Shown piece by piece: positions 4,986-5,409 of a stretch of DNA of 7,246 bases. A program made the position numbers and the translations under genes. Source of the DNA: Escherichia coli (GTDB taxonomy: Bacteria; Pseudomonadota; Gammaproteobacteria; Enterobacterales; Enterobacteriaceae); assembly GCF_003334765.1 (NCBI RefSeq), contig NZ_QOWT01000061.1; one strand, written 5' to 3'. Below the pieces are notes generated by a model, which saw nothing but the letters and a program-made list of their open reading frames with translations, was not told the origin of the DNA and ran no database searches. Position 1 is the first letter of the stretch; every line of letters begins with the position of its first letter.

Positions 4986-5378
4986 GTGGACGATGAACGG
5001 AAAAGGAAAAAATACACACTTTATCTGCATCCGGAAAAAGCTGCAGACTTTCAAACTTTGGAAGCGATAGAGTCCGTTCCGCGTTCTGAGCGTGGTGAGC
5101 TGTTCCGGAATGCATTTATTTCTGGAATGGCGTTACACCAACTTGATCCTCGCCTGCCTGTATTGCTGACTGCCATTTTGAGCGAGGAGTTTTCAGCAGA
5201 TCAGGTTGTAACCTTACTCAGTCAGACGACTGGATGGAAGCCTTCTCAGGCCGATATCAGAGCTGTGTTGACTGAACTCGGTGCTTCGCAATCTGCTGAA
5301 AAAATGCCTCCTTCTGCTACTGATTCGGTGCAGGAGGCAATGAATGATGTGCGTCTTAAAATGAAAAAATTATTCTGA
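4986..5378 (+). CDS. parR: Centromere-binding adaptor ParR/StbB of the type II system
   Basis: 130-aa product from a GTG at 4986, preceded by an AAAGAGGAG Shine-Dalgarno and starting 5 nt after the parM stop. The tool ORF begins at 4950, inside parM. The N-terminal region resembles R1 ParR (VPRSERGELFRNAFISGMALHQLDPRLP vs IPQGERSRLNRAALTAGLALYRQDPRTP). Confidence 0.85.
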   Translation: MDDERKRKKYTLYLHPEKAADFQTLEAIESVPRSERGELFRNAFISGMALHQLDPRLPVLLTAILSEEFSADQVVTLLSQTTGWKPSQADIRAVLTELGASQSAEKMPPSATDSVQEAMNDVRLKMKKLF

Positions 5379-5409
5379 TATATCAGAATGAAGCAATGGG
5401 GATCTCAGT

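Follow-up and report, generated by a model that had tools for sequence, protein, structure and literature searches.

The window, as we call the whole 7246 bp stretch of DNA analysed here, is backbone of pB171/pAA-type IncFIB plasmids and carries the pB171-type double partition locus. Its genes run in the order vapBC, ccdAB and a tyrosine recombinase gene, followed by parB and parA on the minus strand, the shared parC1, parM, parR and a convergent umuC/impB (Table 1). The ParR encoded here is identical at 129 of 130 residues to the crystallised ParR of pB171 (PDB 2JD3, deposited as StbB), and the product is annotated as a plasmid partitioning/stability protein in pLAO63. The sequence of the parR–umuC junction was found in ~980 plasmids of PLSDB. 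Of 5426 complete E. coli genomes, 728 (about 13%) have it, almost always on a plasmid. Elsewhere in the window, in the interval from the recombinase gene to the 3′ end of parB, positions 2727–2762 hold imperfect AT-rich overlapping inverted repeats (21 nt arms, 86% complementary), in what we take to be the place where the par2 site of pB171, parC2, would be expected.

Table 1. Features of the parMR–umuC junction in the window and boxes downstream of parR in diverged loci
Feature	Position	Strand	Basis
ParR-box 1 upstream of parM, GCTCAAATTGAGT	3940–3952		box search
ParR-box 2 upstream of parM, ACTCAGATTGAGT	3981–3993		box search
parM	4010–4981		gene order of the window
Third box copy, inside parM at +201, ACTCATATTGAGT	4211–4223		box search, codon conservation
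parR (pB171 ParR/StbB, 130 aa)	4986–5378	+	identity to PDB 2JD3; pLAO63 annotation; translation
T-run (UUUUUUCAUUUU in RNA), 2 nt past the hairpin	5358–5369	−	plus strand carries parR codons K-M-K-K
Perfect 18 bp palindrome	5372–5389		script check; RNA hairpin of 7 bp, loop UAUA, −5.0 kcal/mol; ssDNA −4.4 kcal/mol
TATA, true 4 nt spacer between the convergent stops and centre of the palindrome	5379–5382		pSa64-96: parR end 2039, umuC end 2044, same sequence
Position homologous to the ParR-box-like element of relatives, TATCAGAATGAAG	5381–5393		alignment; 6 of 10 core positions
Relic 3′ tail of impB/umuC (TEIPIASF and ancestral TGA stop at 5383–5385)	5383–5409	−	translations; first 7 nt are most of the right arm
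Amber codon TAG (CTA on the plus strand) in place of Trp TGG	5410–5412	−	TGG to TAG change at 5411
umuC/impB 3′ fragment	5410–6241	−	window 105–6241 = L001 1501–7637; window 6240–7246 = L001 9617–10623
Downstream box, L003	2882–2894
Downstream box, L005	2670–2682
Downstream box, L010	2890–2902
Downstream box, L013	2887–2899
Downstream box, L014	2886–2898
Downstream box, L015	2887–2899
Downstream box, L016	2895–2907
Downstream box, two-mismatch versions, L011 and L012

Across the end of parR lies the sequence ATTCTGATATATCAGAAT, with arms ATTCTGATA and TATCAGAAT, which is identical to its own reverse complement. The sequence-only reading of this DNA had reported an 18 bp perfect palindrome here with the parR stop inside it, and both statements are confirmed, the stop being the TGA at 5376–5378. 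The confirmation rests on a direct script check; a repeat listing missed the palindrome, apparently since both arms have the same coordinates. Symmetry ends at 18 bp because T at 5371 stands opposite G at 5390. There is no other perfect palindrome of at least 14 bp in the window, and one of at least 18 bp arose in 2.3% of 2000 dinucleotide-preserving shuffles (P ~0.02 per window); one such palindrome is unusual for a single window and expected about once per 300 kb. The window contains no second copy of the 18-mer at up to three mismatches and no enrichment of its half-site. In 298 Gb of species-representative genomes the exact 18-mer had 25 matches, in unrelated taxa and contexts, and only one, an Escherichia contig, was the same plasmid junction. 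The 18-mer is not a recurrent motif, and no other enterobacterial locus was found to carry it. The final two bases of the palindrome also contribute to the ATG of a 71 aa ORF antisense to umuC (5388–5603, plus strand), which is probably spurious because a Shine–Dalgarno sequence is not evident.

We show directly that the palindrome is the site where two convergent genes end almost nose to nose. The left arm is the end of parR, whose product terminates in ...KMKKLF and whose last codons, TTA TTC, and stop TGA supply A-TTC-TGA-TA. The right arm is the mirror image, TA-TCA-GAA-T, and is the end of the full-length impB/umuC gene (...TCA TTC TGA) on the minus strand. This arrangement is seen in the IncI plasmid pSa64-96, where a 423 aa umuC ends 4 nt past parR in DNA that is the same as that of the window. 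The 18 bp read the same on both strands because both genes finish in Phe-TGA and the spacer between them is self-complementary. In most natural copies the impB/umuC frame passes through a TGG codon and stops at the TGA in the right arm, leaving the two ORFs 4 nt apart, and the right arm therefore is, or was, coding sequence.

In the window, this TGG has become an amber codon, and the ancestral umuC stop is therefore the reverse complement of 5383–5385, within the right arm. The tail beyond the amber codon is non-coding here because that codon lies upstream of it: the minus strand translates as ...MLSPSYTTQ, stop, TEIPIASF, stop, and the corresponding C-termini, each followed by a stop, are ...YTTQWTEIPIASF in L006, ...YTTKWTDIPCASI in L003, ...MLSPSYTTQWTEIPIASF in the umuC of pSa64-96 and ...MLSPAYTTKWTDIPCASI in a Citrobacter relative. 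In 64 unbiased metagenome copies, gathered with a 24-mer within parR as anchor, position 5411 is C in 62 and T in 2, and the amber haplotype accounts for 5 of the 78 sequences collected overall. Relative to pLAO63, the window also carries a 1979 bp deletion at 6240/6241, in which umuD and the dinI-like/impC gene were lost along with the 5′ part of umuC and the beginning of a DUF1281 gene; the umuC frame is disrupted in about half of natural copies. The alignments show directly that the TGG to TAG change, 27 nt upstream, and this deletion of ~2 kb killed umuC in the sublineage of the window. The right arm is thus a non-coding relic now, and the junction has come to resemble a 31 bp spacer with a free-standing palindrome in it. 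The earlier description of a 31 bp gap between parR and a umuC fragment is accordingly right about the fragment, whose 5′ part went with the deletion, and right about this window, where 5379–5409 make 31 nt because the umuC ORF ends at the TAG, but such a gap is a recent accident of a minor sublineage and the distance is mostly 4 nt. As the 5′ part of impCAB has been deleted, impCAB transcripts from their own promoter cannot reach the palindrome in this plasmid.

Variation within the E. coli lineage gives little sign that the symmetry is maintained. Three sites segregate among the 18 nt (5377, 5380 and 5386), and each of the changes breaks a pair, without compensation. G5377A turns the parR stop from TGA to TAA, A5380G occurs alone, and a double variant with arms ATTCTGATG and TATCATAAT is carried by pCFR-9161 and by a single metagenome contig. 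Per nt, the palindrome has 0.11 segregating sites (0.17 with three partly rearranged contigs counted), compared with 0.06 for parR coding sequence, 0.15 for the relic tail and 0.23 for umuC. A conservation signal is absent at the palindrome, which varies as much as its flanks.

ParR homologues fell at either at least 95% or at most 77% identity, and 14 diverged loci were retrieved. Nine of these have the convergent parMR/umuCD order, with a stop-to-stop gap of 3–4 nt in six of the nine; the loci with a small gap belong to Citrobacter, Enterobacter, Salmonella, Phytobacter and metagenome lineages. The parR–umuC junction is ancient and collinear across genera. None of the 14 diverged loci, including syntenic relatives at ~70% identity, has the 18 bp palindrome, and other parMR–impB junctions in IncI plasmids, such as that of L118, abut without a palindrome. 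The impB 3′ ends of IncI plasmids are joined to several different partition loci.

Comparison with these outgroups suggests how the palindrome may have arisen. Immediately past the end of parR, all outgroups have (A)TAC/GAC - TCA - AAT/GAT/AAA - TGA, and the E. coli branch has TATA - TCA - GAA - TGA. The changes on the E. coli IncFIB/IncI branch, TAC to TATA and AAT to GAA, are clustered; all of them raise complementarity to the parR end and destroy a box that occupies this position in most relatives, and an outgroup quasi-palindrome with five of seven pairs around a 3 nt centre has become a perfect 9+9 repeat (9 of 9 pairs) here. Template-switch correction of quasi-palindromes is known from E. 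coli mutagenesis. Clustered changes of this kind are the pattern expected from such a 'correction', which may therefore have operated at the junction, although selection for pairing is also possible. Quasi-palindrome mutation hot spots in E. coli have reportedly been characterized by Ripley and by the Lovett laboratory. The junction is like those hot spots in that an imperfect repeat became perfect with every change directed towards complementarity; it is unlike them in that the case is drawn from outgroup comparison.

Other symmetrical elements were seen around the ends of parR. In L014 a palindrome of 10+3+10 crosses the parR stop at 2882–2904 (CTGATACTCA-AAA-TGAGTATCAG; −11.3 kcal/mol as DNA including flanking pairs), and in L012 one of 7+1+7 does so at 2886–2900 (ATCTGAG-A-CTCAGAT). 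Both are built on a ParR-like box, and they could hint at selection for symmetry at the parR stop. An origin of the window palindrome by central deletion of an L014-like extended repeat (CTGATA[CTCAAAATGAG]TATCAG) was ruled out, as the umuC tail aligns codon for codon without a deletion. In L010, a G+C-rich hairpin (CAGGGCAG...CTGCCCTG, ~2906–2935) lies just past the downstream ParR-like box and overlaps the umuC stop; it is more terminator-like than anything at the window junction.

Boxes of this kind recur at several positions along the operon. The ParR operator box of pB171-type par1 loci is taken from work of 2007 as cited in PMC9426499. Matches to ACTCA-N3-TGAGT with at most one mismatch number 44 in 71 kb from 13 diverged loci, where ~2 would be expected by chance. 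In 12 of these 13 loci there are two or three copies close upstream of parM, and a copy inside parM at +201 is likewise present in 12 of 13. A copy after parR, of the form (AT)ACTCA-N3-TGAG(T/G) and 2–3 nt past the parR stop, was found in 9 of the 14 diverged loci (Table 1). The two upstream boxes of the window are 41 bp apart and have the exact 10-mer ATTGAGTATT in common. The downstream box is perfect in L013 and L014, which have no umuC downstream, and in L010, where umuC ends further away, so that umuC coding does not account for it. The window, which represents the E. coli branch, and L017, L089, L090 and L091 lack the box or have a degenerate one. The collinear alignment of the umuC tail places window positions 5381–5393 on the box of L003, L005, L011, L012, L015 and L016; the window sequence has four mismatches in the ten core positions, compared with none or one in its three canonical boxes.

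The copy within parM extends as ACTCATATTGAGTATCA over 4211–4227 (codons 68–73) and is found at the same position in L003, L005, L010, L012–L016, L089 and L091. Across nine parM sequences with 67–74% identity to that of the window there are 180 invariant amino-acid columns with degenerate codons, only six of which use a single codon, and five of those six are the consecutive codons ACT CAT ATT GAG TAT. The fully conserved run at +201 is 17 nt long, and the next-longest run is 7 nt. This pattern points to constraint at the nucleotide level on the +201 copy and to a cis-element embedded in the parM coding sequence. Neither downstream or intragenic ParR sites nor the palindrome are mentioned in the texts reached by our full-text literature searches, a scope that lay outside the primary pB171 papers (Ringgaard 2007; Moller-Jensen 2007). 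On the comparison of boxes, we give slightly less than an even chance to the proposal that the palindrome overwrote the last of a distributed series of ParR boxes (two or three proximal to the promoter, one at +201 kept by selection on synonymous sites and one after parR), that a ParR–DNA complex for partition or repression may span or loop the operon, and that the E. coli IncFIB/IncI branch has lost the terminal box.

Several functions for the palindrome have to be weighed against an origin as a by-product, of which termination is the least improbable. The proposal is that a weak intrinsic terminator or attenuator, or a 3′ stabilizing hairpin, partly stops SOS-induced impCAB transcripts from entering parMR in antisense and caps the parMR mRNA on the plus strand. 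We regard this as unlikely, at perhaps one chance in a handful. A hairpin is predicted on both strands, and the weak AT-rich hairpin without a GC-rich stem anticipated by the sequence-only reading was reproduced by folding, with only two G–C pairs and the energy given in Table 1. Two added pairs (U–A and U·G) bring the plus-strand hairpin to −8.1 kcal/mol, and the 91 nt minus-strand context folds no better than shuffled sequence (z-score 0.0). On the plus strand, that of the parMR transcript, the stem is followed by GAAGCAAUGGGG and there is no U-tract, as had been claimed; the claim does not extend to the minus strand, where the stem is followed directly by AAUUUUUUCAUUUU, with six U's from 2 nt past the stem, behind a weak A–U stem base. 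Since the U-run is present on the minus strand only, any terminator activity would act on impCAB transcripts and not on parMR. The layout is that of Rho-independent terminators of convergent genes in so far as an inverted repeat between convergent ORFs gives a hairpin in both transcripts and lies between an A-run and a T-run, the A-run upstream on the plus strand being the usual one-sided terminator arrangement. It departs from such terminators in its stem, which at −5 kcal/mol and with three A–U pairs at its base beside the U-run falls short of the at least three G–C pairs and the energy clearly below ~−8 kcal/mol typical of an intrinsic terminator; in its U-run, which is confined to the minus strand and offset by AA; and in its pairing, which is neither conserved nor compensated. 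A consensus scan for terminators and promoters, which needs at least three G–C pairs, listed nothing at the palindrome because it has only two, and a scan of 5150–5650 against Rfam 15 returned only noise (E 0.45–0.5, far below the gathering score). The footprint of the ribosome is known, and both stop codons lie in the 5′ arm of the hairpin of their own transcript, so a terminating ribosome would be expected to cover it. That ~95% of natural copies keep the palindrome intact would favour a terminator, although total divergence in the lineage is very low. Of the five variant copies, four lie beside a disrupted umuC, as do 31 of the 65 copies with an intact palindrome, a trend that points in the direction a terminator model predicts but is not significant. 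Syntenic relatives and other par–impB junctions have no equivalent hairpin, variability is not reduced, and in the window the promoter side of impCAB has been deleted. The earlier suggestion of a weak bidirectional terminator thus finds no support from conservation, relatives or energetics, and a leaky attenuator of impCAB in plasmids with an intact operon is a possibility to which we would give the same low weight.

A binding site for a dimeric protein, whether a diverged downstream operator for ParR or a site for some other regulator of plasmid or host, is far less probable still. Perfect dyad symmetry over 18 bp is typical of dimeric regulators, and the same position in nine relatives holds a box whose core is identical to that of the ParR boxes upstream of parM. 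The site thus resembles a ParR operator box in occupying the position of the ACTCA-N3-TGAGT(AT) box of relatives and in being a dyad. Its half-sites are TCTGA/TCAGA rather than ACTCA/TGAGT, and it is at most a candidate operator; of the ten core positions, the six that are left include three supplied by a stop codon (TCA, 5383–5385) and three by a Ser codon (TGA, 5389–5391). The upstream and intragenic boxes of the same plasmid are still canonical, and ParR specificity is therefore unchanged. The want of a second copy or half-site enrichment in the window, the lack of the 18-mer at other enterobacterial loci and its absence from the relatives, and the natural variants that break the symmetry all leave the earlier idea of a protein-binding site without support from comparison. 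The LexA box has the consensus CTGT-N8-ACAG (CTG-N10-CAG). The palindrome is like the LexA box of umuDC/impCAB-type operons in its CTG...CAG ends, AT-rich centre and location beside an SOS-regulated operon; it differs in lying at the operon 3′ end instead of the promoter and in its spacing, CTGA-TATA-TCAG being CTG-N6-CAG, and a LexA/SOS box was rejected on that spacing. Dyads of CRP or FNR type were also rejected, as the spacing does not fit their consensus. Equally improbable, or slightly more so, is a hot spot for recombination or insertion at the border of the par and imp modules. In independent plasmids, two different elements of the IS3 family have an end within the palindrome: in pSCU-175-3 (L009 2542/2543) an IS629-like end (TGAACCGCCCCGGGAATCC) comes after window position 5381, and in pN32a (L120 ~1845/1846) an IS3-like end (TGAACCGCCCCGGGTTTCC) comes after 5384. 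The joining of impB 3′ ends to different partition loci in IncI plasmids would also fit exchange at this boundary. Set against this, the two events come from more than 1500 records, a junction of two dispensable or decaying regions tolerates insertions anyway, the DNA downstream of the insertion has been replaced in both plasmids, which would have removed any target duplication, and the parR–umuC junction is, as noted, old and collinear in several genera; the IS ends may mark an insertion hot spot or merely a tolerated site. Group II introns often insert after terminator hairpins. A group II intron homing site was considered and rejected, as the intron of plasmid 55989p lies near window position 7070 and not at the palindrome.

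We favour, with modest confidence, the reading in which two gene ends that mirror each other gave rise to the palindrome as a by-product, without selection, and in which it overwrote an older element; it may be a 'corrected' quasi-palindrome, and is a leaky hairpin at best. On this reading parR and impB/umuC, both ending in Phe-TGA around TATA, would have given the mirrored 18 bp. An ancestral box, ATACTCA-N3-TGAG, would have stood at the spot until the clustered changes of the E. coli branch, perhaps through a template switch, produced the perfect palindrome and the box was lost. The amber change and the deletion would then have left the right arm of the window's sublineage as a relic of a dead umuC. 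Where the operon is intact, the hairpin might at most slightly attenuate impCAB read-through into par, and such attenuation is impossible here because the 5′ part of the operon is gone. The exact placement of the palindrome does speak against the by-product reading, because, with two TGA stops converging at a distance of 4 nt, a match is needed at six more pairs, at ~4^-6. Symmetry centred exactly between the two stops is thus improbable by plain chance, and a mutational mechanism or selection made the palindrome.

Here we have characterized a palindrome that itself matters little, and the comparison of ParR boxes to which it led may be more useful: the locus appears to have extra ParR-type boxes within parM and, in many genera, just past the end of parR. 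The junction shows that convergent genes can give a striking, perfect palindrome merely because their ends mirror each other, and that what looks like an intergenic spacer can be a relic, the tail of a gene truncated recently. If ParR binds the extra boxes, the two-repeat picture of the pB171 centromere and operator would be incomplete, at a locus that is the structural model for ParR (2JD3) and that is carried on plasmids in ~13% of complete E. coli genomes.
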